Notes: generated by a model from the letters alone, not told the origin. 64,000 nucleotides of DNA from a virus (IMGVR_UViG_3300017917_002605:46471-110470), one strand, 5' to 3'; shown: positions 37,695 through 63,870, counted from the first letter of the stretch. Translations and numbers: made by a program.

Positions 37695-37702
37695 TCTAGT
37701 CT

Positions 37703-37724: not shown

Positions 37725-37728
37725 AAAT

Positions 37729-38189: not shown

Positions 38190-38247
38190 ATTTTAAAGGA
38201 AACAAAATGAAACGAAAACGTAAATCTGAAAAGACCCGAAAACTTAT

Positions 38248-38322: not shown

Positions 38323-38345
38323 ATATTTTTCACTAAAGGATCCAT

Positions 38346-38840
38346 ATGAAAACTGTTAATTATGATTTTAGTAAAGACTTGCCGATTGCTAAGAAAACCG
38401 AAGCACAAATCGCCAAGTATTTGATTGATACACAAGACATGAGTTTTATCGGTACGTCCGATACACTGCCAAATGTCAAGCGCTCTGATTTTGATATTCG
38501 AATGAAATTCAATAAGAGTGGCAAGGTTGTTGATATTGAAATTAAAGAAGACTTTAGTTGTGCTAGGACCGGTAATATCGGTGTTGAGTGTGAAAGTTGG
38601 GGTCGTAAGTCTGGTATTGAAATTTCAAAAGCAGATTTCTATCTTTACAAAATTCATATGTCTGATGGTAAGATTGGTGCATACATCATTCCTACCAAAA
38701 AGTTGAAACAGTTGATTACTGATGAAAAGTATCATCGCATCGTTGTTGGTGGTGACCCTGGTTCCTTCAGTAAGAATTATTTGTTTAAGTTGAGTGTGGT
38801 GTTTGAGAATTTTAAATTTCTTGGAAACCTCACAGAATAA
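38346..38840 (+). CDS. hypothetical protein (possible PD-(D/E)XK-like nuclease) inside the tRNA array
   Basis: RBS AAAGGATCCATATG; …SDFDI…VVDIEIKED motif. Confidence 0.45.
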   Translation: MKTVNYDFSKDLPIAKKTEAQIAKYLIDTQDMSFIGTSDTLPNVKRSDFDIRMKFNKSGKVVDIEIKEDFSCARTGNIGVECESWGRKSGIEISKADFYLYKIHMSDGKIGAYIIPTKKLKQLITDEKYHRIVVGGDPGSFSKNYLFKLSVVFENFKFLGNLTE

Positions 38841-38845
38841 TTTAT

Positions 38846-38922
38846 TCCCCAGTAGCACAGATGGTAGTTGCGTCTGACTGTTAATCAGAATGTCCGTGGT
38901 TCGAACCCACGCTGGGGAGCCA
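38846..38922 (+). tRNA. tRNA-Asn (GTT), second copy
   Basis: TCTGA-CTGTTAA-TCAGA; ends …GAGCCA. Confidence 0.7.
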
Positions 38923-38929
38923 AGTTAAT

Positions 38930-39005
38930 GCCGGTGTAGCTCAGTTGGTAGAGCAGCGCTCTTGTAAAGCGAAGGTCGAGGGTTCAAATCCTTTCTCCGG
39001 CACCA
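38930..39005 (+). tRNA. tRNA-Thr (TGT)
   Basis: Loop CTTGTAA. Confidence 0.75.
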
Positions 39006-39076
39006 GTTTTAGGATGCATTCAGCAAATCTTTTAAATTTCACTGTTAATGAAACTAAAAGCGCATCCTGTTGTTTA
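39006..39076 (+). repeat. spacer hairpin cassette with anticodon-stem-loop-like cargo (TTTCA-CTGTTAA-TGAAA)
   Basis: TTTTAGGATGC…GCATCCTGTTGTTTA. Confidence 0.55.
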
Positions 39077-39080
39077 ATAA

Positions 39081-39158
39081 CCGAGTATAGGCTAGCCCGG
39101 TCAAGTCACTTGCTTTGGGAGCAAGATATCGCAGGTTCGAATCCTGCTACTCGGACCA
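39081..39158 (+). tRNA. tRNA-Pro (TGG)
   Basis: CTTGC-TTTGGGA-GCAAG. Confidence 0.75.
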
Positions 39159-39164
39159 ATTCAT

Positions 39165-39240
39165 GGGGGATTGGTGCTAATTGGGAACACACGGCCCTTG
39201 CAAGGCTGAGTAAGCGGTTCGAATCCGCTATCCTCCACCA
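39165..39240 (+). tRNA. tRNA-Ala (TGC)
   Basis: G3·U70 present; loop CTTGCAA. Confidence 0.8.
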
Positions 39241-39310
39241 GTTTTAGGATTCTTTCAGCAAATAAAAAAAACTTTACTGGAAATAAAGCAAAACGGAATC
39301 CTGTTGTTTA
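39241..39310 (+). repeat. spacer hairpin cassette with ASL-like cargo (CTTTA-CTGGAAA-TAAAG)
   Basis: TTTTAGGATTC…GGAATCCTGTTGTTTA. Confidence 0.55.
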
Positions 39311-39311
39311 T

Positions 39312-39387
39312 GCCGATATAGCTCAGGTGGTAGAGCAGCGGATTGAAAATCCGTGTGTCCCAAGTTCGACTCTTGGTATCGGCACCA
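39312..39387 (+). tRNA. tRNA-Phe (GAA)
   Basis: GCGGA-TTGAAAA-TCCGT. Confidence 0.85.
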
Positions 39388-39588
39388 TAAGAATGATAAC
39401 TGAATGTCAGATGTTGTGAAAGTGTGTTGGGGCACCGATGCATGAGTTGTGAATCTCCGAGAATGAGGCTAAACTATACAAGCAACAAGTAATGACTACA
39501 ACTGATGTACCCTACCGAGTGGCGCCAAAATTACTCGATAATGTGGTTGATGTATGTGGCAACCAAATTTAGTTATCATTCTTATGGT
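39386..39588 (+). repeat. ~200-nt non-coding segment closed by a perfect 15-bp inverted repeat (ATAAGAATGATAACT / AGTTATCATTCTTAT)
   Basis: Long-range stem; no tRNA fold inside; candidate structured RNA. Confidence 0.45.
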
Positions 39589-39661
39589 GATGTAGTTCAG
39601 TTGGTAGAACACCTCCTTCATACGGAGATTGTCGGGAGTTCGAATCTCTCCATCACTACCA
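39586..39661 (+). tRNA. tRNA-Met (CAT), copy 1
   Basis: Loop TTCATAC. Confidence 0.7.
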
Positions 39662-39669
39662 AATTCAAT

Positions 39670-39746
39670 ACGCCGTTAGCTCAACTGAATAGAGCACCTG
39701 GCTACGAACCAGGAGGTTGGGGGTTTGAATCCCTCATGGCGTGCCA
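39670..39746 (+). tRNA. tRNA-Arg (ACG)
   Basis: CCTGG-CTACGAA-CCAGG. Confidence 0.75.
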
Positions 39747-39751
39747 ATTTT

Positions 39752-39826
39752 AGCCGTGTAGCTCAGAGGAAGAGCAATCGCTTGATAAGCGATAGGTCGA
39801 CATTTCGAAACTGTCCATGGCTACCA
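39752..39826 (+). tRNA. tRNA-Ile (GAT)
   Basis: ATCGC-TTGATAA-GCGAT; unusual T-stem (53-61 U·C). Confidence 0.65.
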
Positions 39827-39830
39827 TTTA

Positions 39831-39900
39831 AAGGTTAGGTTCAGCAAATAAAATGCATTCAACTTGTAATTGAAAAACGCAAAAAACTAACCTGTTGTCT
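39831..39900 (+). repeat. spacer hairpin cassette with ASL-like cargo (TTCAA-CTTGTAA-TTGAA)
   Basis: GGTTAGGTTCAGCAAA…CTAACCTGTTGTCTG. Confidence 0.5.
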
Positions 39901-39902
39901 GT

Positions 39903-39976
39903 ATCTCGCTGGTGTAACGGCAGCATGTCGGTCTCCAAAACCGTTGGTCGGGGTTCGAATCCCTGGCGGGATGCCA
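39903..39976 (+). tRNA. tRNA-Trp (CCA)
   Basis: CGGT-CTCCAAA-ACCG as in E. coli tRNA-Trp. Confidence 0.7.
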
Positions 39977-39998
39977 TTTTTAAAAGAAGGTGTGAATT

Positions 39999-40481
39999 AT
40001 GAGAAAGTTAAATTTACAAGAAGTCAAAGCATTCATCGATGCACAATCACCAGATACGAAAGTTTATCTTGGTGCCGACTCCGAACGATTTAATCTGAAC
40101 GGAGTGTGGTACGCTGACTACACTCTAGCTATTGTGGTTCACATCAACGGTAATAACGGTTGTAAGATTTTCGGTGAAGTGCAACGTGAAAGAGATTATG
40201 ACCAAAGAAAAGATAAACCGTCAATGAGATTGATGAACGAAGTGTACAAAGTTGCGGAACTATTCCAGGAACTTTCAGATGTTCTAGAAGATAGACATGT
40301 TGAAGTCCACCTAGATATTAACCCTAACGAAATGCACGGTAGTTCATGCGTTATTTCACAAGCGGTTGGTTATATCAGAGGTACATGTAATGTGATTCCT
40401 TTGGTGAAACCACAAGCATTTGCGGCTTCTTACGCAGCAGACAGACTAAAGTTTGTTTTGTCTCACAAGAAAGCAGCTTAA
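39999..40481 (+). CDS. hypothetical protein (possibly RNase-H-like fold) inside the tRNA array
   Basis: RBS AAAGAAGGTG; 160 aa. Confidence 0.5.
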   Translation: MRKLNLQEVKAFIDAQSPDTKVYLGADSERFNLNGVWYADYTLAIVVHINGNNGCKIFGEVQRERDYDQRKDKPSMRLMNEVYKVAELFQELSDVLEDRHVEVHLDINPNEMHGSSCVISQAVGYIRGTCNVIPLVKPQAFAASYAADRLKFVLSHKKAA

Positions 40482-40488
40482 TCAACAT

Positions 40489-40561
40489 GCGGGTATTCTC
40501 CTGGGAGAGGACTCTGCCTTCCAAGCAGATGAAGCCGGTTCGAATCCGACTACCCGCTCCA
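40489..40561 (+). tRNA. tRNA-Gly (TCC)
   Basis: TCTGC-CTTCCAA-GCAGA. Confidence 0.75.
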
Positions 40562-40562
40562 T

Positions 40563-40680
40563 GTTTTAGGTTACTTACAGCAACTCTAACATAAACGTTA
40601 GGTAACTGGTTCGATTCCAGTTTTACGCTCATGCGTGAATAGCTCATTTGGTAGAGCAGACGAAGAAAGTAACCTGTTGT
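40563..40680 (+). ncRNA. candidate Y-RNA-like (YrlA-like) RNA: 9-bp terminal stem enclosing a circularly permuted tRNA-like module (T-arm, acceptor 3', 4-nt loop, acceptor 5', D-arm) with no anticodon arm
   Basis: AGGTTACTT…AAGTAACCT terminal stem; CTGG-TTCGATT-CCAG T-arm; TTTTACGC / GCGTGAA pairs 7/7; canonical D-arm TAGCTCATTTGGTAGAGCA; ~270 nt upstream of a Ro60/TROVE-like gene. Confidence 0.45.
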
Positions 40681-40704
40681 GTGCCACGTTTGCCTGAAAA
40701 TGAC

Positions 40705-40733
40705 TTGACAGGCAAACGCAAATACTGTAGAAT
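40705..40733 (+). promoter_or_regulatory. consensus sigma70 promoter TTGACA-N17-TAGAAT, with the -35 inside a hairpin GTTTGCCTG…CAGGCAAAC
   Basis: Hexamers and spacing; flanking inverted repeat. Confidence 0.6.
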
Positions 40734-40747
40734 ACACAGTATTGAAA

Positions 40748-40877
40748 GTTCTAGGATAGTTACAGCAAACATCATACTAACGGCTAATACCCGTATCAAG
40801 ATGGTCTGGTTCGCCGGACGAAGTGTGTTTCGAATTTCACACTCTAAAGAAAAAGTAGAAAGCTATCCTGTTGTTTT
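40748..40877 (+). repeat. spacer hairpin cassette carrying tRNA-fragment-like sequences (GGTTCGCC, TTTCGAATTTCACAC) and duplicated GACGAAG
   Basis: CTAGGATAGTT…AGCTATCCTGTTGTTTT terminal repeat. Confidence 0.45.
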
Positions 40878-40950
40878 AAAATTTGGGTTCAGTTCAGCAA
40901 TCGAAATTTCTATTATATCGGAAAAGATGAACCCGTTGAAAGGAAAAATT

Positions 40951-42378
40951 ATGAATACTTTTGTTAATGCAGTAGTAAATCAAGAAGCACGTACCACCAA
41001 CGGCATGATGGCTCGTAAGGGTACTGCTAATGCAGTTGTAGACCTGTTCTACAAGATTGGTGGTTCCCGTGGTAAGGATATCACAAAGGATTTCGTTGCA
41101 GCTCTGGTTGAAAACGAAGACCTTGCATTGCGTGTTGCTCTATGGGCTCGTGATGCACGTGGTGGTGCCGGTGAACGTCAATTGTTCCGTGATATTTTGA
41201 AGTATCTGGAAAAGAATCGTCCTGACCTAGCAGAACGTGTGCTGGCCAAGGTCCCTGAATTGGGTCGTTGGGACGATGTGTTTGTCTTTGAAACCAAGGA
41301 ATTGAAGTCAAAGGCTTACACCATGTTGGGTGATGCTCTACGTGCTAAGAATGGTCTAGCAGCAAAATGGACCCCACGTAAAGGCCAAATCGCACGTGAA
41401 ATTCGTGAGTTCTTTGGTATGTCACCCAAGTTCTATCGTAAGTCGCTGGTTGAATTGACCAACGTTGTAGAACAAAAAATGTGTGCTAAGGATTGGAATG
41501 ATATCAACTTTAGCCATGTACCTTCTGTAGCGTCTGCTCGCTACAAGAAAGCATTCTACCGTAACGCAACTGAAGCATACTCTGCCTACGTTGCATCACT
41601 GGTAAAGGGTGATAACCCTAAAGTGAAGGTAAATGCAGGTGCAGTGTTCCCATACGATGTGCTGAAAGGCGTAATCGGTTCATACAACATGAACTACAAT
41701 AAGACCGAATTGGACTTGTTGACCAAACAATGGGAATCTCTGGAAAACTTTGTTGGTGATGCAAACGTATTGCCACTGGTTGACGTTTCTGGTTCTATGA
41801 CTTGTCCTACCGGCGGTTATGGTTCTAAGAGCAAGACCACTTGTCTAGATGTTGCAGTATCTTTGGGTCTGTACTTGGCTGACAAGAACAAAGGTAAGTT
41901 CAAGGATACGTTCCTGACTTTCTCTGGTTCTCCAGAACTGTTGCACCTAAAAGGTAACATTGTTCAGAAGGTTCAACAAATGGTGTCCTCTACTTGGGGC
42001 ATGAATACTGACCTAGTGAAAGCTATGGACAAGATTCTGAAGACTGCTGTACAAGGTGGTGTTCCTCAAGAAGAAATGCCAGAAATTCTTCTGATTCTGT
42101 CAGACATGCAGTTTGACCAATGTGCCCGTTTCGATGACTCTGCAATGAAGATGATTCAACGCAAGTTCACCGATGCAGGTTATGAAGTACCAAAACTGGT
42201 ATTCTGGAACCTGAATGCACATGACAATGTGCCTGTGAAGTACGATACCCGTGGCGTAGCCCTTGTATCTGGCTTCTCACCAACTTTGATGACTGCTGTT
42301 CTTGGTGGTGATACTGAAAAGTTTACCCCAGAAGCCATCATGTTGAAAGCAATTATGGTTGACCGTTACAACGTTTGA
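40951..42378 (+). CDS. TROVE/Ro60-like (Rsr-like) protein with C-terminal vWA domain
   Basis: MIDAS LPLVDVSGSM; C-terminal segment follows the Ro60 pattern (…ILLILSDMQFD…KLVFWNLNAHDNVPV…GVALVSGFSPTLMTAV); RBS GAAAGGAAAAATTATG; this 475 aa ORF is the same size class as bacterial Rsr (I believe roughly 500-530 aa). The call rests on sequence similarity I could not verify by search here. Confidence 0.55.
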   Translation: MNTFVNAVVNQEARTTNGMMARKGTANAVVDLFYKIGGSRGKDITKDFVAALVENEDLALRVALWARDARGGAGERQLFRDILKYLEKNRPDLAERVLAKVPELGRWDDVFVFETKELKSKAYTMLGDALRAKNGLAAKWTPRKGQIAREIREFFGMSPKFYRKSLVELTNVVEQKMCAKDWNDINFSHVPSVASARYKKAFYRNATEAYSAYVASLVKGDNPKVKVNAGAVFPYDVLKGVIGSYNMNYNKTELDLLTKQWESLENFVGDANVLPLVDVSGSMTCPTGGYGSKSKTTCLDVAVSLGLYLADKNKGKFKDTFLTFSGSPELLHLKGNIVQKVQQMVSSTWGMNTDLVKAMDKILKTAVQGGVPQEEMPEILLILSDMQFDQCARFDDSAMKMIQRKFTDAGYEVPKLVFWNLNAHDNVPVKYDTRGVALVSGFSPTLMTAVLGGDTEKFTPEAIMLKAIMVDRYNV

Positions 42379-42611
42379 CTATATAATAAACTCGTATTAT
42401 GATTTGTACGTTAAGGAAATCAGGTAATTGCCAAACCATAAGAGCACGGTTCGCACGATGAAGATTCTGTTAGCTACAGTGACCGCAAGGCCCGCTTTAC
42501 ATGGGCGACTTGAGAGAATCGTGGGTTGAGAATAGTCTTTTCCAAAAAGAGAATCTGGACAGGGTAACAACTCAGTTAGGGGCGAGGTAGTTCCGTAGCC
42601 TAACAACTTAT
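42379..42611 (+). other. 230-nt non-coding region downstream of the Ro60-like gene (possible second small RNA)
   Basis: No ORF with a start/RBS; hairpins GTTAGG…CCTAAC; position matches where many bacterial Y RNAs lie. Confidence 0.25.
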
Positions 42612-42688
42612 GCGGATATGGTGTTTAACGGTTAGCACGTGACCTTGCCAAGGTTGAAGTTCCAGTTCGAATCTGGATATCCGCTCCA
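42612..42688 (+). tRNA. tRNA-Gly (GCC)
   Basis: TGACC-TTGCCAA-GGTTG. Confidence 0.8.
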
Positions 42689-42699
42689 GTTCCCTTAGG

Positions 42700-42772
42700 G
42701 GTGTCATTAGTGTAGTGGTCTGCACGCCATGTTGTGACCGTGGCAGTATGAGTTCAATCCTCATATGACACC
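42700..42772 (+). tRNA. tRNA-His (GTG) with encoded G-1
   Basis: G-1:C73 extra pair; CCATG-TTGTGAC-CGTGG. Confidence 0.8.
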
Positions 42773-42786
42773 CCTAAGTGAATTAT

Positions 42787-42861
42787 GCTTCGATAGCTCA
42801 GCGGTAGAGCAACGCCCTTACAAGGCGAAGGTCCAAGGTTCAATCCCTTGTCGAAGCACCA
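42787..42861 (+). tRNA. tRNA-Val (TAC)
   Basis: Loop CTTACAA. Confidence 0.8.
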
Positions 42862-42868
42862 AGATTAT

Positions 42869-42944
42869 TGCGGAGTGGAGAATTGGTATCTCGTCAGTCT
42901 CATAAGCTGAAGACAGTTGGTTCGATTCCAACCTCACGCAACCA
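42869..42944 (+). tRNA. tRNA-Met/fMet-like (CAT), copy 2, with a bulged A in the acceptor stem
   Basis: TCAGT-CTCATAA-GCTGA; acceptor TGCGGAG / CTC(A)CGCA. Confidence 0.5.
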
Positions 42945-42950
42945 AATTAT

Positions 42951-43030
42951 GTGCGTTTGGTCTAAATGTTAGGGCACCATGACATGGGGCTAGAAACCTC
43001 AAGATGCGGGTTCGAATCCCGTAACGCACA
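42951..43030 (+). tRNA. atypical tRNA-like gene (long D region; anticodon loop CTAGAAA)
   Basis: Acceptor GTGCGTT/AACGCAC and T-arm are good; the anticodon cannot be assigned cleanly; no CCA. Confidence 0.35.
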
Positions 43031-43039
43031 CCGAAATAT

Positions 43040-43123
43040 GCCCTGGTGGTGGAATGGTAGACACGCTGGTCTTAGAAACCAGTGCCGCAAGGCGTGGGAG
43101 TTCGAGTCTCCCCTGGGGCACCA
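43040..43123 (+). tRNA. tRNA-Leu (TAG), type II
   Basis: CTGGT-CTTAGAA-ACCAG; variable hairpin. Confidence 0.8.
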
Positions 43124-43129
43124 TCTTTA

Positions 43130-43204
43130 GCTCTTATAGTATAATGGTTATTACACATCCTTGGTAAGGCTGAGACACAAGTTCGATTCTTGTTAAGAGC
43201 ACCA
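43130..43204 (+). tRNA. tRNA-Thr (GGT)
   Basis: Loop TTGGTAA. Confidence 0.75.
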
Positions 43205-43207
43205 AAT

Positions 43208-43284
43208 CTCGCCGTGGTCTAATGGATTAAGGCAACGCTCTTCTAAAGCGTCCGATGGGGGTTCGAATCCCTCCGGCGAGGCCA
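43208..43284 (+). tRNA. tRNA-Arg (TCT), second copy
   Basis: ACGCT-CTTCTAA-AGCGT. Confidence 0.75.
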
Positions 43285-43293
43285 AATTTTAAA

Positions 43294-43312
43294 GTCATTC
43301 AAATTTTTAAAG
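43294..43312 (-). repeat. inverted copy of the conserved leader element (GTCATTCAAATTTTTAAAG)
   Basis: Reverse complement of CTTTAAAAATTTGAATGAC, lying between tRNA-Arg and tRNA-Leu. Confidence 0.5.
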
Positions 43313-43317
43313 TACAT

Positions 43318-43401
43318 GCGAGTGTGGTGGAACGGTATACACAGCAGACTTAAAATCTGCCGCCGCAAGGCTTGAGGGTTCGAATCCCTCCTCTCGCACC
43401 A
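43318..43401 (+). tRNA. tRNA-Leu (TAA), type II
   Basis: GCAGA-CTTAAAA-TCTGC. Confidence 0.8.
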
Positions 43402-43406
43402 TTTAT

Positions 43407-43483
<77 letters not shown>

Positions 43484-47949: not shown

Positions 47950-48705
47950 ATGAAGGTTGTTGTGGTCTCTGGCGGTTTCGACCCAATACACTCCGGACAC
48001 ATCGAGTTGCTTCACCGTGCTAAAGCACTAGGTGATTATCTCATTGTGGGTGTTAATTCTGATGATTGGTTGACCAGGAAAAAAGGTCGACCATTCATGC
48101 GTTGGAACGACCGAGCAGGTATCATTTACAACCTAAAAATGGTTGATGAAGTCTATCATATCAACGATGAAGATGGTACCGCTTGCGATGTTATTCAATA
48201 TGCACAAACAAAATTTCCATCGTCAGAAATAATTTTTGCTAACGGTGGTGACCGAACACAAGATAACATTCCAGAAATGAAAATGCGTGGAGTGAAATTT
48301 GTGTTTGGTGTCGGTGGTGATTATAAGATGAATTCAAGCTCTTGGATTCTTGACCAGTGGACACATCCGAAAACCTATAGGACTTGGGGTTACTATCGTG
48401 TGTTACATGAGATTCCAGGAATGAAAGTCAAAGAATTGACCGTTGACCCTGGTGCAGCATTGAGTATGCAGAGACATTCTGGTAGAAATGAATTTTGGAT
48501 TGTTTCTGAAGGTGAATGTATTGTACACCGAGCAATGACAAGTGGTTATACGATGCCTTCAGCTGTACTGAAGAAACACGACCAATTAAATATTCCTGTT
48601 GGTGAATGGCACCAACTTGTAAATCCGCACGATGAACCTTGCAAAATTGTTGAGGTTCAATTCGGTGATTATTGTAAAGAAGATGATATAGAAAGAAAGA
48701 TATGA
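47950..48705 (+). CDS. nucleotidyltransferase (cytidylyl/adenylyl-transferase HIGH motif) fused to a C-terminal cupin domain
   Basis: GGFDPIHSGH…; C-terminal cupin-like β-barrel motifs. Confidence 0.6.
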   Translation: MKVVVVSGGFDPIHSGHIELLHRAKALGDYLIVGVNSDDWLTRKKGRPFMRWNDRAGIIYNLKMVDEVYHINDEDGTACDVIQYAQTKFPSSEIIFANGGDRTQDNIPEMKMRGVKFVFGVGGDYKMNSSSWILDQWTHPKTYRTWGYYRVLHEIPGMKVKELTVDPGAALSMQRHSGRNEFWIVSEGECIVHRAMTSGYTMPSAVLKKHDQLNIPVGEWHQLVNPHDEPCKIVEVQFGDYCKEDDIERKI

Positions 48706-48887
48706 CCAAAGCACACTGGGAAGGCGGAACTGGTGGCAAAGGAAGTGCCCCACGCCGAATGGAAATTTCACAAGATGAATGGGCTAACAGATGGGATGCC
48801 ATCTTCCAACGTGACCTAAAAGAGGAAAATAAAGATAATGAAAGTAGCAGTGATAACACCGACAATCGGAAGTCCTCTACTGAGTGA
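48702..48887 (+). CDS. small hypothetical protein (overlaps the start of the GT gene)
   Basis: ATGA-coupled, but 50-nt out-of-frame overlap. Confidence 0.3.
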   Translation: MTKAHWEGGTGGKGSAPRRMEISQDEWANRWDAIFQRDLKEENKDNESSSDNTDNRKSSTE

Positions 48888-49593
48888 TTGCCTCCGTTCG
48901 GTTGATAAACAAACTTACAAAGATTTAACTCATTACATTTTTGTCGATGGTATCACCAACAACAAAAAAGTTTCTGAACAAATTGAAGGTGCCACTAAGG
49001 TAAAAACTATTACCTTAGAGGAGAACATTGGTAAAGGATGGTATGGGCATAGAGTTTACGCAGCTTGTTCATTTCTTGTCAATGCTGACATTATCGTTTA
49101 TCTTGACGAAGACAATTGGTTTGAACCATGCCATGTTGAAAAACTTGTTGGTAAGATTCGTGAAGGAAATGATTGGGCGTATTCGTTAAGGAAAATTTAT
49201 GATAAAGAAGGAAACTTTCTCTGTGAAGACAATTGTGAATCGTTGGGTAAATGGCCTACGTATTTTGACGCTAACACATTTCACGTTGATACATCAAGTT
49301 TTGCAATACGCCGTGATATTGCTGTTCGGATTGGTCATGCTTGGTACGGCCAATGGGGCGCCGATAGACAATTCTTTCATGCGCTAAAACACCACTTTCC
49401 AAAGTTTGATTGTACCTATGCACATACAATGTGTTATCGATTGGATGGAAATCCAAATTCGGTGACAAAGCAATTCTTCGATGAAGGTAACGCAATCAAT
49501 TCACGTAAATACAACAACGAATTTCCATGGAAAAAACAGCACTTATTACAGGCGGCTCCGGATACCTCGGGAGTCATCTATCTAAAGACCTAA
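48838..49593 (+). CDS. family 2 glycosyltransferase
   Basis: VITPT…N-terminal GT-A fold; DxD-like YLDEDN. Confidence 0.65.
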   Translation: MKVAVITPTIGSPLLSDCLRSVDKQTYKDLTHYIFVDGITNNKKVSEQIEGATKVKTITLEENIGKGWYGHRVYAACSFLVNADIIVYLDEDNWFEPCHVEKLVGKIREGNDWAYSLRKIYDKEGNFLCEDNCESLGKWPTYFDANTFHVDTSSFAIRRDIAVRIGHAWYGQWGADRQFFHALKHHFPKFDCTYAHTMCYRLDGNPNSVTKQFFDEGNAINSRKYNNEFPWKKQHLLQAAPDTSGVIYLKT

Positions 49594-50468
49594 AGAAACA
49601 GGGATGGAATGTTGTAAACTACGACATTAAACAACCCGAACACAAGTTTTACGATATCTATTATCCTGGTGACATTCGTGACCGTGGCCGAGTGAATGAT
49701 GTACTAAGCCGACACAAGTACGACCTGGTAATTCATTGTGCTTCACGTATTGAGGTTGGTGAGTCCATGAAGAACCCAACCGAATTCCATGAAGTGAATG
49801 TTGGTGGCACTGCCATCCTTTTGAATGCTATGAAGAAGAACAAGATTGATACAATTCTTTTTAGTTCTACGGCAGCGGTGTATCTGACCGGACCTTTTCC
49901 TATTCCTGAAGATGAATGCACCACACCAGACAATTCTGTTTATGGTTCTACAAAAATTGCTTGTGAGAACATGATTATGGAGTCTGGTCTTAAATACGGT
50001 ATCTTCCGCTACTTCAATCTTGCTGGTGCTCATCCTGACGGTGATATAGGAGAGAATCACGACCCCGAAACACACCTGATACCATGCATTCTAGGAAATC
50101 TAAATAATTTCAAGATTTTCGGTAATGACTATAATACCGAGGATGGAACTTGTGTTCGTGATTATGTTCATGTTTGTGATGTTGCTGAAGCACATCTACT
50201 GGCCATAGAACACTTGAAAGAACACGATTCATTTATTGTTAATTTAGGAACAGGAACAGGTTATTCAATTTTACAGATTGTGAAGTTGATTCAGTATGAT
50301 TTGGGCAAAACGGTAAATTACCAGTTTGCCGAAAGACGGGCAGGTGACCCCGATAAGTTAGTTGCCGACATAACTCTTGCCAAAAAACTGTTGAATTACC
50401 GACCAAAGCATGATATACTCTCCATTCTCAGGACAGCTAACCAATGGCAAGAAAGAAATGAAAGATAA
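49527..50468 (+). CDS. NAD-dependent sugar epimerase/dehydratase (GalE-like)
   Basis: TGGSGYLGSHL Rossmann motif; YGSTK catalytic YxxxK. Confidence 0.8.
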   Translation: MEKTALITGGSGYLGSHLSKDLKKQGWNVVNYDIKQPEHKFYDIYYPGDIRDRGRVNDVLSRHKYDLVIHCASRIEVGESMKNPTEFHEVNVGGTAILLNAMKKNKIDTILFSSTAAVYLTGPFPIPEDECTTPDNSVYGSTKIACENMIMESGLKYGIFRYFNLAGAHPDGDIGENHDPETHLIPCILGNLNNFKIFGNDYNTEDGTCVRDYVHVCDVAEAHLLAIEHLKEHDSFIVNLGTGTGYSILQIVKLIQYDLGKTVNYQFAERRAGDPDKLVADITLAKKLLNYRPKHDILSILRTANQWQERNER

Positions 50469-52780: not shown

Positions 52781-53815
52781 ATGCGTAAAATGGCAAGTAT
52801 TCGTAAAATTGATGCAATTGGTCCTATTGAAGGTGCCGATGCAATTGAAGTAGCCACTGTTGGTGGCTGGAAAGTTGTTGTAAAGAAAAATGAATTTAAC
52901 GTTAATGACCTTGCGGTCTATTTTGAAATCGATAGTTGGGTTCCTACAGAGTTGGCGCCGTTTCTTAGCAAAGGTAAAGAGCCGAGGGAATTTCACGGAG
53001 TAAAAGGTGAACGCCTGCGTACCGTTAAACTGCGTGGTCAATTGAGCCAAGGTTTGCTTCTGCCTCTAGAACCGACTTGCGCTAATATTGTAAGTGAATT
53101 GTTCGAAGGCCTTGATGTGAGCATTCCTCTGAATGTTCAGAAATGGGAAATGGAAGTTCCTGCACAATTGGCTGGCCAAGTTAAAGGTAATTTTCCGAGC
53201 CTGGTTCCTAAAACCGACCAAGAACGTGTTCAAAATCTGGTTGAAGAAATCAAGGGTGCAATTGAAAGTGAAATGGCTTTCGAAATCACCGAAAAACTGG
53301 AAGGTAGCAGCATGACCTGTTACCTGATTGATGGTGAATTCGGTGTTTGCAGTCGTAACTTGGACCTGAAGCGTGATGAAAATAACGCATTTTGGGCTAC
53401 TGCTATTGCTGAAGACATTGAAGCAAAGATGCGAGCTGTTCCTACTGGTGGTGATTTTGCCATTCAAGGTGAACTGATTGGTCCTGGTATTCAAGGAAAC
53501 ATTTACAAACTGAGCAAACCACAATTCTTTGTGTTTGATGTTTACAACATTACGCTAGGTGAGTACATGCGTCCGAATGCTCGGCGTGAATTGGTTGAAA
53601 AGTTCCTTGGACTGAACCATGTTCCTGTTGTTGCTCATACCGCAAAACTGACTGACACCCTAGGTATTAAAGATATTGAAGGTGTTCTGAAATTTGCTGA
53701 AGGCAAGAGCACACTGAATCCTGCTCAAGAACGTGAAGGAATCGTGTTCAAGGAATGCAATGGTGGCATGACTTTCAAGGCAATTTCCAACAAGTACCTA
53801 CTGGCGGAAAAGTAA
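52781..53815 (+). CDS. putative RNA-ligase-like nucleotidyltransferase
   Basis: Candidate lysine-nucleotidylation motif …ITEKLEGSSM… (KxEG); N-terminal OB-like domain; RBS GGAGATAATTATG. Confidence 0.45.
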   Translation: MRKMASIRKIDAIGPIEGADAIEVATVGGWKVVVKKNEFNVNDLAVYFEIDSWVPTELAPFLSKGKEPREFHGVKGERLRTVKLRGQLSQGLLLPLEPTCANIVSELFEGLDVSIPLNVQKWEMEVPAQLAGQVKGNFPSLVPKTDQERVQNLVEEIKGAIESEMAFEITEKLEGSSMTCYLIDGEFGVCSRNLDLKRDENNAFWATAIAEDIEAKMRAVPTGGDFAIQGELIGPGIQGNIYKLSKPQFFVFDVYNITLGEYMRPNARRELVEKFLGLNHVPVVAHTAKLTDTLGIKDIEGVLKFAEGKSTLNPAQEREGIVFKECNGGMTFKAISNKYLLAEK

Positions 53816-56619: not shown

Positions 56620-56916
56620 ATGAAATATTGGAATGAGCTGACTGCTGTTGAAAGTGAATCTATTCGACTTGAATGTTTGCTTTCGTTGTTGCGTACCGTA
56701 GCACACGGTGCCGAAAATGTTGACAAAGAAACTTTGGTTGATTGTATCTGGCATATGGAAGGTACCCTTGAAGATATCAACGGTAAACTCCGTGCGGCAT
56801 TTAATCAAACGTGGGATGCCGTGGCTGAAGATGAAACGCTTGCCACAGACGAAGATGTGGTGTATAATTTTGAACCACTAGAAACAGTAATGTCCCAATG
56901 GACACGTAAACAATGA
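56620..56916 (+). CDS. hypothetical protein
   Basis: RBS GGAGATTGGTAATG (the track start is TTG). Confidence 0.5.
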   Translation: MKYWNELTAVESESIRLECLLSLLRTVAHGAENVDKETLVDCIWHMEGTLEDINGKLRAAFNQTWDAVAEDETLATDEDVVYNFEPLETVMSQWTRKQ

Positions 56917-57458
56917 ATATCTTCTACCTCGACCATGATGTGACCAAATGTGCTGAATATCACAATGACAAGCACGTGGTCAAAATGATTTTAGAATATG
57001 CTCAACTTCTTTCTACTGCTCATCGTGTTCTTGATGGCGTTGAATCTACTCGCCTCTCTAAAACTGGTCGAAAGCAAAAGTGGTACGGTCTTTCTGACAA
57101 CCGTGAATATCTGCTTTATAATGCTACTCATCTCAACCATCCTTCAGCTAAATGGTGTAGAGATTCAGCTGAAAACTATCTTTGGCTCTATCATCTCTTT
57201 TGTGCAGTCTGTGATGAATACACCTATCGATACGGCAAAGTACATTTGACTGACCAAAAGTTGAGGCATGTTCTGTCCCATGTACCACACAATATCAATA
57301 AAAAACCTTTCGAACAACCATGGCGTGCTATGCCTGACGAAGTGAAAATTGGCAACGATTCTCTGGCATCTTATCGTAACTACTATATAAACAATAAGAC
57401 GCACCTGGCGTCATGGAAAAAGCGAAACATCCCGGAGTGGTATAGTGCCAACGTATGA
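56913..57458 (+). CDS. hypothetical protein
   Basis: ORF, 181 aa. Confidence 0.55.
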   Translation: MNIFYLDHDVTKCAEYHNDKHVVKMILEYAQLLSTAHRVLDGVESTRLSKTGRKQKWYGLSDNREYLLYNATHLNHPSAKWCRDSAENYLWLYHLFCAVCDEYTYRYGKVHLTDQKLRHVLSHVPHNINKKPFEQPWRAMPDEVKIGNDSLASYRNYYINNKTHLASWKKRNIPEWYSANV

Positions 57459-57774
57459 ATTTTTAGATACTGAGACTAACGAATATTTTGAAGTCGTTAT
57501 GAAAATCTCCGAACGTGAGGAGTTCCTACAAGCGAACCCACACGTTCAACCCGTTATATCCGCACCAAACATTGTGTCTGGTGTTTCAACATCCAACGGT
57601 ACAGGCAACCGAGTACCTGATGGATTCAAAGAAGTGCTTTCTAAAATTGGTGAAGCACACCCAAACAGTAAAGTCGGCATGGAATACGGCGACAAATCTA
57701 TCAAGGCAGTTAAGACCCGTGAAGTGGTTCGAAGACACATTGATAAAGTAACAAAACGATTGACCAATACATGA
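57445..57774 (+). CDS. hypothetical protein
   Basis: ORF. Confidence 0.5.
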   Translation: MPTYEFLDTETNEYFEVVMKISEREEFLQANPHVQPVISAPNIVSGVSTSNGTGNRVPDGFKEVLSKIGEAHPNSKVGMEYGDKSIKAVKTREVVRRHIDKVTKRLTNT

Positions 57775-58457
57775 TGTTTGAATTTGTAAAACTGCCTGAG
57801 TTGCAATTTGACCTGAAAGCAGAAACAACCAGTGACGGAAGAAAGTATGTAACGCCACACGGCAAGAAATACCCTTCCGTCACTACTATTTTGCAACCAT
57901 ATTCCATCGCAAAGGTTATGGAGTGGCGCCAACGTGTTGGTGATGAAGTTGCAAACAAAGTTGCAGCAAAGGCCTCTCGCCGTGGTACAAATCTTCATTC
58001 AATCTGTGAAAAGTACCTGTTGAATGAAATGACCGATATGCAGTACAAGATGATGATGCCGCATATCAAGCAATTGTTTGTTCAACTGAAGCCGCAACTC
58101 GACCAACATATTGGTAAGATTTACTGCCTTGAACAAGCACTGTACTGTGACAATCTAAGAATCGCTGGTCGTGTGGATTGTATTGCAGAATGGAAAGGCA
58201 AACTGTCGGTGATTGACTTTAAATCTTCCACTCGCATGAAGCAGGAAGAAAACATTGGCAATTATTTTATGCAGTGTGCCGCATATGCTCAAATGTTTGA
58301 AGGCATCACAGGTCAACCGATTAATGATTTGGTCGTTGCTATTGGTGTTGAAGAAGGTGAAGGCCAGATTTTTGAGGTGCAAAAGGATAAATATTTGCCC
58401 GAATTGCATAAGTACGTGAAGAAATATTACCGCAAAAATCCGGTGGTTGAGTTATAA
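57771..58457 (+). CDS. PD-(D/E)XK nuclease superfamily protein (Cas4/RecB-like)
   Basis: GRVD…EWKGKLSVIDFKSS motifs II-III. Confidence 0.55.
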   Translation: MMFEFVKLPELQFDLKAETTSDGRKYVTPHGKKYPSVTTILQPYSIAKVMEWRQRVGDEVANKVAAKASRRGTNLHSICEKYLLNEMTDMQYKMMMPHIKQLFVQLKPQLDQHIGKIYCLEQALYCDNLRIAGRVDCIAEWKGKLSVIDFKSSTRMKQEENIGNYFMQCAAYAQMFEGITGQPINDLVVAIGVEEGEGQIFEVQKDKYLPELHKYVKKYYRKNPVVEL

Positions 58458-58479
58458 TTAGTTTTATGGTTGTATGAAG

Positions 58480-58772
58480 CAACTAGAAAAGTGTTCTGGA
58501 CGTGGGTTCGACTCCCACCATCTCCACCGAAACACATTGCGGCACTAGGAGCGCATTTAAACTTAACCTAGTGTGGCTACTTGGGCAGTGTGTTTCGGTG
58601 GGGATGCCATGGTTTCGACAGGGCAAAGAGTACAGAAGTGGACAACTCGACACAGATAGTCGTTAAAAGTAAATTAAGTAAATGCAAACGATGAAAAGTT
58701 CCGCATTGCTGCCTAATTAAAGGCTGCTAGGGTTTCGGTGGGTTCCTCGTAACAGAATACCCACCACTAATT
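58480..58772 (+). ncRNA. ssrA: circularly permuted (two-piece) tmRNA gene: acceptor piece (T-arm plus CATCTCC-A-CC) upstream, structured intervening segment, then coding piece (GGGGATG…TTTCGACAGGG, tag ORF GCA AAC GAT GAA AAG TTC CGC ATT GCT GCC TAA = ANDEKFRIAA, 3' hairpin)
   Basis: T-arm GTGGG-TTCGACT-CCCAC at 58502-58518; acceptor 3' CATCTCC (58519-58525) pairs 7/7 with GGGGATG (58600-58606), giving G3·U70 and A73 (alanine identity); tag reading frame 58684-58716 starts with GCA and ends …IAA-TAA; no T-arm downstream of the tag, so the order is permuted. Confidence 0.6.
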
Positions 58773-58782
58773 TTATGGTGAA

Positions 58783-59502
58783 GTGATGAAAGTTTATCTA
58801 GGCAAACCACGATATCATTGGATATCTCCATACAAGATTATCGAACACGTTTTCTTTTGGACTGATTGGTCTAAATGTGGTCGTAGCAAGGATTTTATCC
58901 CTGATGAAAAGTATGTTGACCATCCGAAGTGGGTAGATAAACTTGCTGACAAGATTGAACCTCTATCTGTACTGATTCAGAAGGTTCTTGACAAAATTCA
59001 TCCTGAGGTCAATTATGTGAAGATTGATTACTGGGATGTTTGGTCTATGGACCACACCTTGTCACCAATCATTTTACCGATGTTGATTCAGTTGAAGAAG
59101 GTCAAACACGGTTCTGGTTATGTTGACCTTGAGGATGTGCCTGAACACCTGCGATACACTACGCACGAAGATTGGGACGATAATCACCAGTTTGATTTTT
59201 ATAAAAATTATGAAGGTCCTAAAATTGATTGTGATGTTCACACTCGTTACGAATGGTTGCTTGACGAATTGATTTGGACATTCACGCAACTATCCGATGA
59301 TAACAACGGTGAGAACCAATTCTGGCATGACCACGGTGAGATTGATTTCTCCGAACATCCAGAAGATGTTGGCAAAAAGACAAGACCTCTACGTTGGTTG
59401 AGAGAATCCAAGGTAGACTGGGAAGGATTGCGAGCACACCAAGCTCGTATTCAGAATGGCTTGAAGTTGTTCGGTAAATATTACCAAACTCTTTGGGACT
59501 AA
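58783..59502 (+). CDS. hypothetical Trp/Asp-rich protein
   Basis: ORF, 239 aa. Confidence 0.55.
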   Translation: MMKVYLGKPRYHWISPYKIIEHVFFWTDWSKCGRSKDFIPDEKYVDHPKWVDKLADKIEPLSVLIQKVLDKIHPEVNYVKIDYWDVWSMDHTLSPIILPMLIQLKKVKHGSGYVDLEDVPEHLRYTTHEDWDDNHQFDFYKNYEGPKIDCDVHTRYEWLLDELIWTFTQLSDDNNGENQFWHDHGEIDFSEHPEDVGKKTRPLRWLRESKVDWEGLRAHQARIQNGLKLFGKYYQTLWD

Positions 59503-59886: not shown

Positions 59887-60462
59887 ATGCGAAGTAAAAT
59901 CTTCATTACGACCGCATTTCTATGCCTCACATTTTTATTGATGGCATTTAGTACTAGAAGTGAGAACACGTTACTGTTTGACAATGTTCCCTTCACCGCA
60001 TTATCCAAACCTGCACAGAAACAGGCAGAATGTTTGGCAGAAAATATGTATTTTGAAGCAGCGCATGAACCACACGATGGTAAAGTTGCCGTTGCACTCG
60101 TCACACTAAACAGACTTGCATCAGGCAATTACGCTGGTGATATTTGTGGTGTCGTTAAGCAAAAATTGAATGTTGATGGTAGAACAGTTTGTCAATTTTC
60201 ATGGTACTGTGACCACAAGTTTACCTCAAGACGCTTGACAATCAAAGACACTCCGTTATATAATGAGATTCGTGACATTGCTGTTTATGTTTTGTTAAAT
60301 TATGAAAGGATGACTGACTTCACCGGTGGAGCAACTTATTATCATGCCGACTATGTGAATCCAGGTTGGAAGTTACCGAAGACAACCAAAATTGGAAGAC
60401 ACATATTTTACCGCAGTAAAAAAGACTACATCACAGAAGACAGAAAGGAAATCAGAATATGA
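59887..60462 (+). CDS. SleB/CwlJ-family cell-wall hydrolase with N-terminal signal/anchor
   Basis: ENMYFEAAHEPHDGKVAVALVTLNR… Hydrolase_2 signature; RBS TAAGGAGAAAATATG. Confidence 0.65.
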   Translation: MRSKIFITTAFLCLTFLLMAFSTRSENTLLFDNVPFTALSKPAQKQAECLAENMYFEAAHEPHDGKVAVALVTLNRLASGNYAGDICGVVKQKLNVDGRTVCQFSWYCDHKFTSRRLTIKDTPLYNEIRDIAVYVLLNYERMTDFTGGATYYHADYVNPGWKLPKTTKIGRHIFYRSKKDYITEDRKEIRI

Positions 60463-60725: not shown

Positions 60726-60998
60726 ATGGCAGTTATGCAGTTGGCAATTAATCAGATTTCTAATCCCGCTGACCGTGAAAAGTTGTTCAAGGTTCTACAG
60801 GAATGTTCAGGTGCTATGACCCGAATGGAAGGTGAGAAAGACTATATCAAAGAGTCTGTCACCCAAATTTGTAATGACCTGAAACTTCCAAAGAAGATTG
60901 TTTCTCGCCTAGTCAAGGTCTATCATAAACAAAATTATGATGAAGAAGTTGCTGTGCATGAACAGTTTGAACAACTTTATGAAACTATTGTAAAGTGA
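60726..60998 (+). CDS. hypothetical protein
   Basis: RBS AAGGAGTTTATTATG. Confidence 0.55.
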   Translation: MAVMQLAINQISNPADREKLFKVLQECSGAMTRMEGEKDYIKESVTQICNDLKLPKKIVSRLVKVYHKQNYDEEVAVHEQFEQLYETIVK

Positions 60999-61575: not shown

Positions 61576-62163
61576 ATGACTGGTTATGAAGCGTTCTCAC
61601 TTTACAACTCACTGAAACTCCACTTTTCCTCTGATACGTATGATTATTTCAAGTATCATGGTAAGAGCAACATTTCAGTGGACTCTTTTGAAAAGAGAAA
61701 AGACAAATATCATTTCTACAAACTCTCCCGCAGAAATGAAGCAGAGGACTACATTCAGTTTTTGGTCTCCAATTTCCTAAACAATGACAAGTGTTGGGCA
61801 GGAGACCTTCTTCAAGATGAAGCTCTAACCGCTTATCGTGACCGTATGAAGGTGATACAATCGCTGACATACATGTTCACGGAAGATTGTAGAAAATTGA
61901 AGGATGTTTGTGAAAATCCTAATGACTTGTTGAAAACAGATGGTGACTATCCTGTTTTGTTGACGATGACTTTGAGGAAAGAAATTCAATTCGAAACACT
62001 CTGTATTATGAATTCAATCATGGGTTTTCTTCCAATGTGGCGAAGAAAAATTACAGACACTATTCGGTTTCCAGAAGTGCATCGTAAAATTGTGAAATAC
62101 ACACCATTCATTCCTTTCGACAAGGAAAAAATGAAAACAATACTGATTAAGGAATTGCTATGA
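61576..62163 (+). CDS. hypothetical protein
   Basis: ORF, 195 aa. Confidence 0.55.
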   Translation: MTGYEAFSLYNSLKLHFSSDTYDYFKYHGKSNISVDSFEKRKDKYHFYKLSRRNEAEDYIQFLVSNFLNNDKCWAGDLLQDEALTAYRDRMKVIQSLTYMFTEDCRKLKDVCENPNDLLKTDGDYPVLLTMTLRKEIQFETLCIMNSIMGFLPMWRRKITDTIRFPEVHRKIVKYTPFIPFDKEKMKTILIKELL

Positions 62164-62973: not shown

Positions 62974-63870
62974 ATGAGTTCATTTGCAAATCTTAAGCGT
63001 AACCGTTCTTCCCTGGACAAACTAACCAAGGCAATCGAACAATCTACGCAAACTGCCGAAGCAGGTTCTAAAGACGATAATCGTTTCTGGCAACCTGAAG
63101 TTGACAAGGCAGGTAACGGCATGGCAATCATCCGTTTTCTCCCAGCTCCTTCCATTGATGGTGACGATGCTCTTCCTTGGGCACGTACATTCTCCCATGG
63201 CTTCCAAGGACCTGGTGGTTGGTTCATTGATAACTGCTTGACTACCATTAACGAAAAGTGTCCTGTGTGCGAACACAACAACACTCTTTGGAATTCTGGT
63301 ATCGAAGCGAACAAGGACATTGCACGTAAACAGAAGCGTAAACTTCAATACGTTGCAAACGTTCTGATTGTTTCTGACCCTAAGCATCCAGAAAACGAAG
63401 GTCAAATCAAACTGTTCAAGTTTGGTAAGAAGATTTTCGACAAGATTTCTGAAGCGATGAATCCTGAGTTTGAGGATGAAACACCTCTGAACCCATTCGA
63501 CTTCTGGGAAGGTGCCAACTTCAAGTTGAAGATTCGTAATGTTGAAGGTTATCGCAACTACGACAAGTCTGAATTTGATTCACAAACAGCACTGTTCGGT
63601 GGTGATGATGAAAAACTTGAAGAAATCTGGAAGAAAGAATATTCTCTGAAGGAATTCACCGACAAGAAGAACTACAAACCTTACGAACAACTCAAGGGTC
63701 GCCTTGACAAGGTTCTTGGTTTTGATGGTACTGCTGTCAACCTAAAGTCTAAGGCTGCTGATGCACCTGCTTTTGTTGAAGATGATGTTTCATTCGACAC
63801 AACTAGCAAAGCTGCTGATTCTGGCGATGATGATATGGATTATTTCAAGTCTCTCGCTGAGCAAGACTAA
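62974..63870 (+). CDS. 32: single-stranded DNA-binding protein (T4 gp32-like)
   Basis: VDKAGNGMAIIRFLP and LFKFGKKIFDKI match T4 gp32 blocks; acidic C-terminal tail. Confidence 0.85.
   Translation: MSSFANLKRNRSSLDKLTKAIEQSTQTAEAGSKDDNRFWQPEVDKAGNGMAIIRFLPAPSIDGDDALPWARTFSHGFQGPGGWFIDNCLTTINEKCPVCEHNNTLWNSGIEANKDIARKQKRKLQYVANVLIVSDPKHPENEGQIKLFKFGKKIFDKISEAMNPEFEDETPLNPFDFWEGANFKLKIRNVEGYRNYDKSEFDSQTALFGGDDEKLEEIWKKEYSLKEFTDKKNYKPYEQLKGRLDKVLGFDGTAVNLKSKAADAPAFVEDDVSFDTTSKAADSGDDDMDYFKSLAEQD

Follow-up and report, generated by a model that had tools for sequence, protein, structure and literature searches.

The locus under study resides in a stretch of viral DNA of 64,000 nucleotides (IMGVR_UViG_3300017917_002605:46471-110470), hereafter referred to as the window; the tmRNA gene described below and the two genes that flank it are located on its plus strand. 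A gene for a PD-(D/E)XK exonuclease of the Cas4/RecB-like type occupies positions 57771-58457 (phrog_298, E 7e-70; Pfam PDDEXK_1), and an ORF that matches phrog_11543 (E 1.7e-42) and has no Pfam match is found at 58783-59502. The 325-nt gap between these two genes, in which no overlapping ORF exceeds 56 amino acids, holds a gene for a two-piece, circularly permuted tmRNA. The -10-like element of the tmRNA gene encloses the stop codon of the exonuclease gene, and the downstream ORF starts about 15 nt past the 3' hairpin of the tmRNA. The long ORFs in the vicinity are all encoded on the plus strand and match T4-type functions; they include an RNA ligase (52781-53815), a DenV-like glycosylase (56913-57458), an endolysin-like cell-wall hydrolase (59887-60462), a DsbA-type regulator (60726-60998), a gp59-type helicase loader (61576-62163) and a gp32-type SSB (62974-63870). 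Both subunits of ribonucleotide reductase, an ATP-dependent DNA ligase and T4 RNase H are encoded in the window as well, and an array of 32-33 tRNA genes at 35.5-43.5 kb (ARAGORN, Rfam) serves all 20 amino acids. The nearest deposited relatives of the SSB stem from cyanomyoviruses, at about 55% amino-acid identity, and a megablast search with 14 kb retrieved no close deposited genome. The window thus comes from a T4-like myovirus that is uncultured and fairly divergent.

ARAGORN calls a permuted tmRNA (tmRNA*) at 58437-58807 and assigns it the tag ANDEKFRIAA. The Rfam model beta_tmRNA (RF01850; gathering score 84 bits) matches with 135.1 bits (E 4.8e-41; model positions 1-331 of 331), and the model tmRNA_permuted (RF04321; gathering score 47 bits) with 126.3 bits (E 2.6e-24; model positions 1-213). 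RF01850 is the top match within clan CL00001, ahead of the alpha and cyano models; the same scan of the window returned no match to the standard tmRNA (RF00023) and no riboswitch family at its gathering score. The MFE z-score of the tmRNA region is -4.1, a value that beats 100 of 100 shuffles. The gene order is that of the permuted type, with the T-arm, the acceptor 3' strand and CC preceding an intervening segment and the acceptor 5' strand following it, and the gene is complete from the 5' extension to the 3' hairpin. The initial annotation had proposed a permuted ssrA gene in a phage genome, made as a precursor in need of cutting, and had named ARAGORN and the Rfam/Infernal tmRNA models as suitable checks. 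This proposal is well borne out by the ARAGORN call with the identical tag, by the scores of two Rfam models above gathering, and by the covariation described below, while the cleavage itself is a step that we infer; every sequence element that had been listed is present in its place.

According to the Rfam alignments and the covariation, the acceptor piece spans 58468-58528, that is about 61 nt, to which a post-transcriptionally added A76 would bring about 62 nt. Its extension carries the 5' strands of two P2 helices, GGUUG (58468-58472) and UGUUCUG (58492-58498; Rfam, covariation). As both strands belong to the gene, the start initially set at 58480 has to be moved about 12 nt upstream. There follow the T-arm GUGGG/UUCGACU/CCCAC (58502-58518) with its 5-bp stem and 7-nt loop, the acceptor 3' strand CAUCUCC (58519-58525), the discriminator A73 (58526) and CC (58527-58528), all of which can be read directly from the sequence. 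The next base is a G, and the terminal A of CCA is consequently not encoded in the window; this ACC-G is unique to the window among the 19 genes that we aligned, the 18 relatives all possessing ACCA.

The coding piece of about 169 nt extends from 58600 to 58768, with an approximate 3' end, as judged from Rfam and covariation. It opens with the acceptor 5' strand GGGGAUG (58600-58606), whose perfect pairing with CAUCUCC had rightly been noticed from the sequence and provides, in a helix that covaries, the G3·U70 wobble (G58602·U58523) along with A73. Located further downstream are the D-loop analogue GGUUUCGAC (Rfam), the P2 3' strands CAGGGCA (58619-58625) and CAACU (58643-58647), which pair with UGUUCUG and GGUUG of the acceptor piece, respectively, and the hairpin CGAC/GUCG (58648-58662; Rfam), three of whose four pairs are compensated. 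The 3' hairpin GGUGGG/CCCACC with its conserved loop CCUCGUAACAGAAUA (58737-58765; Rfam), which shows compensated pairs as well, resembles the end of the alpha_tmRNA consensus. With the boundaries mapped in this way, the sizes of about 62 nt and about 169 nt are close to those predicted for the two pieces. By eye, we found no convincing second stem of PK1; only the hairpin CGAC/GUCG is supported, and the Rfam beta model likewise contains a hairpin only. A candidate H-type pseudoknot past the tag (UAGGG 58728-58732 / CCUCG 58745-58749) consists of mostly invariant pairs, one of which is usually mismatched. Since the hairpin with the loop CCUCGUAACAGAAUA fits the very end of the alpha_tmRNA consensus (…CCuGGCAACAGAAacCucCACU), the mature 3' end is likely to lie near position 58768. 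Downstream of this hairpin there is only UUUU, with no strong terminator before the next ORF at 58783, and termination may thus be leaky.

At the other end of the gene, a putative -10 element, TATAAT (58454-58459), aligns to the UAuAAU block of RF01850 and is positioned 8 nt 5' of G58468, where pairing in the acceptor piece begins. In L054 and L053, the closest relatives, this site reads TGnTATAAT, and a T4-late-type motif (TATAAATA) replaces the -10 element in five others (L063, L070, L075, L076 and L085). No convincing -35 element was found upstream of TATAAT, and a generic promoter scan also did not call the site. We regard TATAAT as a candidate promoter element of the tmRNA gene.

Orthologues of the exonuclease served as the anchor for our comparative analysis, which comprises 42 related IMG/VR loci with 72-39% protein identity. 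ARAGORN detected a permuted tmRNA immediately 3' of the exonuclease gene in 28 of these 42 loci. Rfam confirmed all 18 non-redundant ARAGORN-positive loci that were run, which stand for 27 of the 28 (L056 was not included), and added seven loci that ARAGORN had missed, so that the total amounts to 35 of 42. Nineteen non-redundant genes were aligned (MAFFT columns), and six Rfam-derived helices were mapped onto the alignment. In these helices, 89.0% of the cells are paired, compared to 40-53% when the partners are slid by 1-3 columns. Changes on both sides are present in 23 of the 34 pairs, a number that none of 500 shuffles (mean 13.8) reaches, and the covariation score of 0.416 stands against 0.076-0.132 in the slid controls. 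The helices that are possible only between the two pieces, with 88-95% of their cells paired, rank among those with the strongest support. In the outer P2 helix (helix 1), every one of the five pairs is compensated; P2a (helix 2) is 90% paired and has four of its seven pairs changed on both sides; and the acceptor helix (helix 4) is 94.7% paired with three of seven pairs compensated, its positions 4-6 switching among CG, GC, UA and AU. The T-arm is paired throughout (100%), with four of five pairs compensated. G3·U70 is kept in 18 of the 19 genes, and TCCACC is invariant. Judged from the alignment, this comparison shows a gene under structural selection that is syntenically conserved across a broad T4-like clade. 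We conclude with high confidence that the locus is a true phage gene, kept by selection, that encodes a two-piece, circularly permuted tmRNA of the beta type and has been inherited within a clade of aquatic T4-like myoviruses; the window's two-piece tmRNA is probably functional.

The tag reading frame runs from the resume codon GCA at 58684 to the stop codon TAA at 58714-58716 (58684-58716; GCA AAC GAT GAA AAG TTC CGC ATT GCT GCC TAA, ANDEKFRIAA*). Both ARAGORN and a column-by-column comparison with the relatives support it, and the reading of a GCA-opened ANDEKFRIAA-TAA frame offered at the outset was correct. The accompanying likeness to the gamma-proteobacterial tag ANDENYALAA can stand as a resemblance, but not as an exclusive one, since the ANDExFAMAA-like, beta-type consensus of RF01850 is no more distant from the tag. 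The tags of the relatives, among them ANDEKFALAA, ANDSQFALAA, ANESVYKLAA and ANEERFALAA, have degron-like ends of the form ANxx…(L/I)AA, and the frame is intact in every copy. At the end of the tag, the relatives have TTC GCA TTG GCT GCC TAA (FALAA), whereas the window has TTC CGC ATT GCT GCC TAA (FRIAA), a compensated frameshift (+C/-G), its two changes placed six bases apart, that turns AL into RI. As the frame is restored and the C-terminal Ala-Ala is kept, the tag probably still works. The two indels behind the Arg-Ile replacement could reflect relaxed constraint or be an artefact of the assembly. In Stenotrophomonas phage Marzo, the tag independently ends in …VRIAA (GTC CGC ATC GCG GCT).

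The unusual tag end bears on an alternative according to which the gene product is a tmRNA mimic that interferes with trans-translation, either because it titrates the host's SmpB or AlaRS or because the RIAA degron is handled differently by proteases or adaptors. Rescue without normal degradation, or a block of host rescue, would be the consequence. RIAA in place of the near-universal LAA, and its recurrence in Stenotrophomonas phages, would be in keeping with such a role, as would the presence of beta-type genes in phages whose hosts are generally known to use a one-piece tmRNA. There is also a precedent for inhibition: a tmRNA that consists of the tRNA-like domain only, like that of mycobacteriophage DS6A, inhibits the endogenous tmRNA (PMC11915505; PMC4131195). 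Against this, the gene in the window possesses a full mRNA-like domain, and both the resume context UAAAUGCA and the canonical AND… N-terminal half of the tag are conserved among the relatives. Furthermore, 18 of the 19 clade members have retained LAA, which marks RIAA as a variant local to the window and not as the design of the clade, and Ile-Ala-Ala is a conservative C-terminal change. We therefore consider interference with trans-translation to be an improbable purpose of this gene.

The slot behind the exonuclease gene is home to more than one type of permuted tmRNA. For the closer relatives, the beta model gives the highest score (106-158 bits), and for five more distant ones (L077, L082, L083, L085 and L086) the alpha model does, their genes showing alpha hallmarks such as a GCGAUAC T-loop. 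A further alternative is that a host ssrA gene, or a piece of it, was picked up by the phage, for instance when it integrated at a tmRNA gene or was excised from one, and is now decaying as a non-functional relic. tmRNA genes are common integration sites, and fragments of them are found in prophages (PMC9004378). The two indels that set the window's tag apart from those of its relatives and its incomplete CCA could be viewed as signs of decay. Furthermore, a 25-nt string from the T-arm/acceptor part of the window's gene is shared by 47 viral contigs, about 28 of which have a permuted tmRNA, and 12-14 lack a full tmRNA call. However, a gene that is complete at both ends, that is found at the same place in 35 of the 42 related T4-like contigs of the lytic type with exonucleases of 72-39% identity, and that has accumulated abundant compensatory changes while its tag frame stayed intact in every copy does not look like a remnant; even in the window, the frame lost with the first indel is regained within 6 nt. 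There is likewise no sign of recent capture, since a search of reference genomes from 185,579 species met the exact 35-nt acceptor string on no more than two contigs, both of them MAG contigs, one with a standard tmRNA and the other with a beta-type permuted gene that may belong to a phage or to a bacterium. The covariation largely refutes decay as far as the sequence comparison can tell, and we rate it as very improbable.

The intervening segment that separates the two pieces, presumably excised, comprises 71 nt (58529-58599) and adopts a long hairpin in the MFE fold. It had been described as a segment of about 70 nt closed by an inverted repeat, and this description is accurate: its ends, together with CC 58527-58528, form a stem of 14 positions that includes one U·G pair. 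In the MFE fold, this closing stem continues the acceptor stem, with U58599 opposite A73, GG 58597-58598 opposite CC 58527-58528 and GAAACACAUUGC opposite GCAGUGUGUUUC, so that the precursor contains one continuous helix of more than 20 bp. Across the 19 genes that we compared, the spacer varies between 17 and 120 nt and is only 4-29% identical to that of the window. Relative to its closest relative L054, the acceptor piece is 84% identical, the coding piece 82% and the spacer about 20%. Nevertheless, the closing stem is kept in nearly all relatives despite the unconserved sequence. Hypervariable content combined with a conserved closing stem fits an excised spacer and argues against two independent transcripts. 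The excision would in fact be unavoidable because the CCA end, which has to be free for alanylation, sits upstream of the 5' half. That the two halves derive from separate transcripts, with a second promoter inside a spacer that is indeed long (71 nt here and up to 120 nt in relatives) and has an AT-rich center (TTTAAACTTAAC), is hardly credible, given that the pairing of the spacer ends in a stack on the acceptor stem makes sense only for a single precursor, that the 17-nt spacers of L089 and L090 are too short for a terminator plus a promoter, that the promoter scan called no site inside the spacer, and that bacterial two-piece tmRNAs are described as processed from a single precursor (PMC11915505).

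The preferred reading, a two-piece tmRNA matured from one permuted transcript, lends itself to the following scheme. Transcription would start at or near G58468, driven by the TATAAT element (58454-58459), or would read through from the exonuclease gene. Sequence and fold suggest that CAUCUCC (58519-58525) of the precursor would pair with GGGGAUG (58600-58606), with the 71-nt spacer hairpin stacked on this stem. By analogy with the maturation of tRNAs and tmRNAs, the RNase P of the host would then cut 5' of G58600, and a 3' processing activity would trim after C58528. As the gene encodes ACC-G, A76 would have to be supplied by the CCA-adding enzyme of the host; none was found among the 26 ORFs of the phage that we scanned. 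Two RNAs are predicted to result, the acceptor piece (about 62 nt) and the coding piece (about 169 nt), joined by the acceptor stem and two P2 helices; this pairing is backed by the covariation, and the cleavages that would release the pieces are extrapolated from known maturation. If the gene product behaves like its homologs, the AlaRS of the host would charge it by virtue of G3·U70 and A73, and SmpB and EF-Tu of the host would bring it to ribosomes that have stalled on broken mRNAs, where translation would resume at GCA 58684 and add ANDEKFRIAA. A phmmer search of the ORFs of at least 80 amino acids in the 64-kb window, with E. coli SmpB as the query, yielded nothing for smpB below E 0.3, and function would thus depend on compatibility with the SmpB of the host. 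The RNA may serve to keep ribosomes available while, in the course of infection, the mRNA of the host is destroyed and its RNA synthesis shut down, thereby complementing the full tRNA set of the phage.

With respect to known systems, the closest match is the beta-proteobacterial two-piece tmRNA represented by RF01850, for which a lineage of permuted ssrA genes was reportedly described by Sharkady and Williams in 2004. The order of elements is the same in both, consisting of 5' extension, T-arm, acceptor 3' strand, spacer, GGGG strand, P2, hairpin, tag and 3' hairpin; moreover, the window's -10-like TATAAT coincides with the promoter block of the model, and its tag is of the ANDE.F..AA type. 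The two differ in the length of the spacer, 71 nt in the window versus about 16 nt in the consensus, in the terminal hairpin of the model (positions ~307-328), which is unmatched in the window, and in the RIAA end of the tag. They also differ in their location, since the window's gene is not the ssrA of a cell on a beta-proteobacterial chromosome but is surrounded by the genes of a lytic-type, T4-like phage. The phage carries a copy that is homologous to the beta type and, judging from this homology, expected to work like it.

The initial annotation had considered a phage-borne permuted ssrA to be possibly new. This view cannot be upheld, as such genes have already been published, are annotated in GenBank and are present in many viral contigs. 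A two-piece ssrA has been described in the Methylophilales phage Melnitz (Buchholz et al., 2022; PMC9004378). In the same study, a survey of 18,146 phage genomes yielded 133 unique tmRNA structures, 53 of which were two-piece according to ARAGORN, mostly from aquatic phages, and permuted tmRNAs were present in 17 of 47 Melnitz-related contigs; Table S1 lists the Stenotrophomonas phages Mendera, Moby and YB07 among those labeled 'Permuted' (PMC9004378). A tmRNA database paper from 2025, the source of RF04321, counts 79 bacteriophage sequences, and its database comprises 11,946 permuted ones (PMC11915505). The phage genes listed in the tmRNA census of 2014 were all one-piece (PMC4131195), which may explain the earlier impression of novelty.

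Like the virus of the window, Melnitz and the pelagimyophages are aquatic T4-like myoviruses with a permuted tmRNA among genes for replication and late transcription, in a phage group in which the tmRNA is 'common but not defining' and an integrase is not involved (PMC9004378). In contrast, the tmRNA of Melnitz is alpha-type, with a glutamine riboswitch reported in its 3' domain, whereas that of the window is beta-type and has no riboswitch at gathering score. Our blastn search of the Melnitz and pelagiphage isolates with the divergent gene of L089 found nothing, and Phage C48C1, which has the best deposited relative of the exonuclease, has no tmRNA after its exonuclease gene. The exonuclease protein of the window itself is recorded solely on a 1.1-kb Logan contig from SRR5831666. 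As to cultured phages, GenBank annotates a permuted tmRNA in the Stenotrophomonas phages Marzo, Bhz51, Yut2 and Yut3, and with ARAGORN and Rfam we found permuted genes in Marzo, Synechococcus phage BUCT-ZZ01, the Xanthomonas phages Rb1, JGB6 and XacN1, and Pseudomonas phage SM1. These genes all pass RF04321, and all but that of Rb1 pass RF01850. The genes of the Stenotrophomonas Menderavirus group (Marzo, Moby, Mendera, Bhz51 and others), SM1, XacN1, Rb1, JGB6 and BUCT-ZZ01 have the ARAGORN tmRNA* type in common with the window; they often lie beside tRNA genes. They differ in that they share about 78-83% identity with the window over 65-100 nt, reside in other genome types, hosts and neighborhoods, and score lower with the beta model (94-111 bits). 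Three unannotated 'Listeria phage' fragments share a 33-nt identity that probably reflects tmRNA or tRNA-like ends (short T-arm/acceptor matches). The one-piece tmRNAs of the mycobacteriophage Bxz1 group and of Bacillus phage G are likewise phage homologs of ssrA presumed to act with the SmpB of the host; those genes are not permuted, and that of DS6A is without a tag frame (PMC4131195), in contrast to the permuted gene with a complete tag frame in the window. The window's gene is thus a further example of the known two-piece phage tmRNAs and not a new category.

Catalogues of two-piece phage tmRNAs go back to at least 2022, and the gene described here adds an uncultured T4-like lineage to those phages that carry a ribosome-rescue RNA of their own. 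Our analysis is also of value for annotation, as in several deposited phage genomes the gene is unannotated or overlaid by a spurious protein, and it provides a clean comparative data set for studying the function of phage tmRNAs. The hosts Pseudomonas, Xanthomonas and Stenotrophomonas have the standard one-piece form as their own tmRNA. Together with the single slot kept across a deep clade, the mixture of alpha- and beta-like genes in it and the rarity of the 35-nt acceptor string, the occurrence of permuted genes in phages of such one-piece hosts leaves room for a long independent history in phages. One may speculate, as an unlikely reading at present, that the beta-like permuted tmRNA constitutes a phage-maintained lineage, inherited vertically in one T4-like slot in alpha- and beta-like forms and spread across unrelated phages. 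If this were true, the reservoir of the permuted ssrA genes of some bacterial lineages could lie in phages and not in bacteria, and phages might possibly also have delivered them. Variant degrons such as RIAA, which occurs in two phage groups, might in that case have evolved in phages as a means of altering what happens to tagged proteins. The structural selection on the gene and its syntenic conservation speak for a benefit that these phages draw from additional trans-translation, next to their full set of tRNAs.

The permuted tmRNA gene of the window departs from its relatives in two places. At 58700-58712, within the tag-coding region, a frameshift caused by an inserted C and compensated by the loss of a G, relative to all relatives of the clade, puts RI in the tag in place of AL. 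The resulting RIAA ending is shared with Stenotrophomonas phage Marzo (about 1745-1760 of locus L001). At the acceptor end (58526-58529), the window gene reads ACC-G where 18 of the 18 aligned relatives possess ACCA; the terminal A of its CCA would have to be added post-transcriptionally.

The slot downstream of the exonuclease gene is occupied by genes of more than one model type. Closer relatives in this syntenic position score best with the Rfam model beta_tmRNA, while in the more distant viral loci L077, L082, L083, L085 and L086 the permuted tmRNA that follows the exonuclease orthologue has its best score with alpha_tmRNA. The 3' loop motif AACAGAA is common to both groups. The intervening segment of a further related viral locus, L068, contains a second T-arm-like string, GGGTTCGATTCCCACC, at about 3925-3945, which may be a scar of duplication or recombination.

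On a 46-kb contig assigned to an 'uncultured Alteromonadales' MAG (L096; CALMJT010000228.1), positions 583-1031 hold a permuted tmRNA of the beta type, with 139 bits and the tag ANDSTYALAA, that shares the 35-nt acceptor string of the window gene. The contig also harbors an endolysin-like gene; it may belong to a bacterium, represent a prophage or be phage DNA binned in error. Three short records that lack annotation, all 'Listeria phage LM' fragments (OR847240.1, OR848174.1 and OR848209.1), match 33 nt of the window T-arm/acceptor region with 100% identity right at their beginning (positions 39-71). Such a match is odd for Listeria phages and may reflect contamination or a conserved tmRNA end.

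Permuted tmRNA genes have been overlooked in several deposited phage genomes: they are unannotated in BUCT-ZZ01 (L003, 1289-1707), Rb1 (L004, 1472-1900), JGB6 (L005, 1479-1887), SM1 (L099, 776-1196) and XacN1 (L100, 781-1201). An opposite-strand CDS labelled 'hypothetical protein' overlaps the JGB6 gene, and 'hypothetical protein' annotations likewise cover the matches found in two Pseudomonas phages, UF_RH6 and PA_L9. ARAGORN additionally reported spurious standard-form tmRNAs in L001 (1249-1566), L004 (1224-1564), L099 (615-868) and the related viral locus L064 (3519-3721); these calls borrow the T-arm/acceptor that really belongs to the permuted gene, and their tags are implausible. ARAGORN without further support is insufficient evidence for a tmRNA.

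The window tmRNA lies outside, and 15 kb distant from, a dense plus-strand array of 32 ARAGORN-predicted tRNA genes (35525-43483), to which Rfam alone adds one (42951-43030, plus strand). Combined, these genes cover 20 of the 20 amino acids; Gln(ttg) and Arg(tct) are duplicated and Met(cat) occurs three times. The length of the ARAGORN-called 'tRNA-Ile(tat)' (36931-37023, plus strand; 93 nt) implies a long variable arm, and since this is unusual for Ile, the assignment is in doubt: the gene could encode a lysidine-type tRNA or a mis-assigned class II tRNA. The window further encodes, on the plus strand at 47950-50468, a sugar-nucleotide gene cluster comprising a mannose-6-phosphate isomerase/cytidylyltransferase fusion, a family-2 glycosyltransferase and a nucleotide-sugar epimerase, which could serve the phage in modifying DNA or surface glycans.
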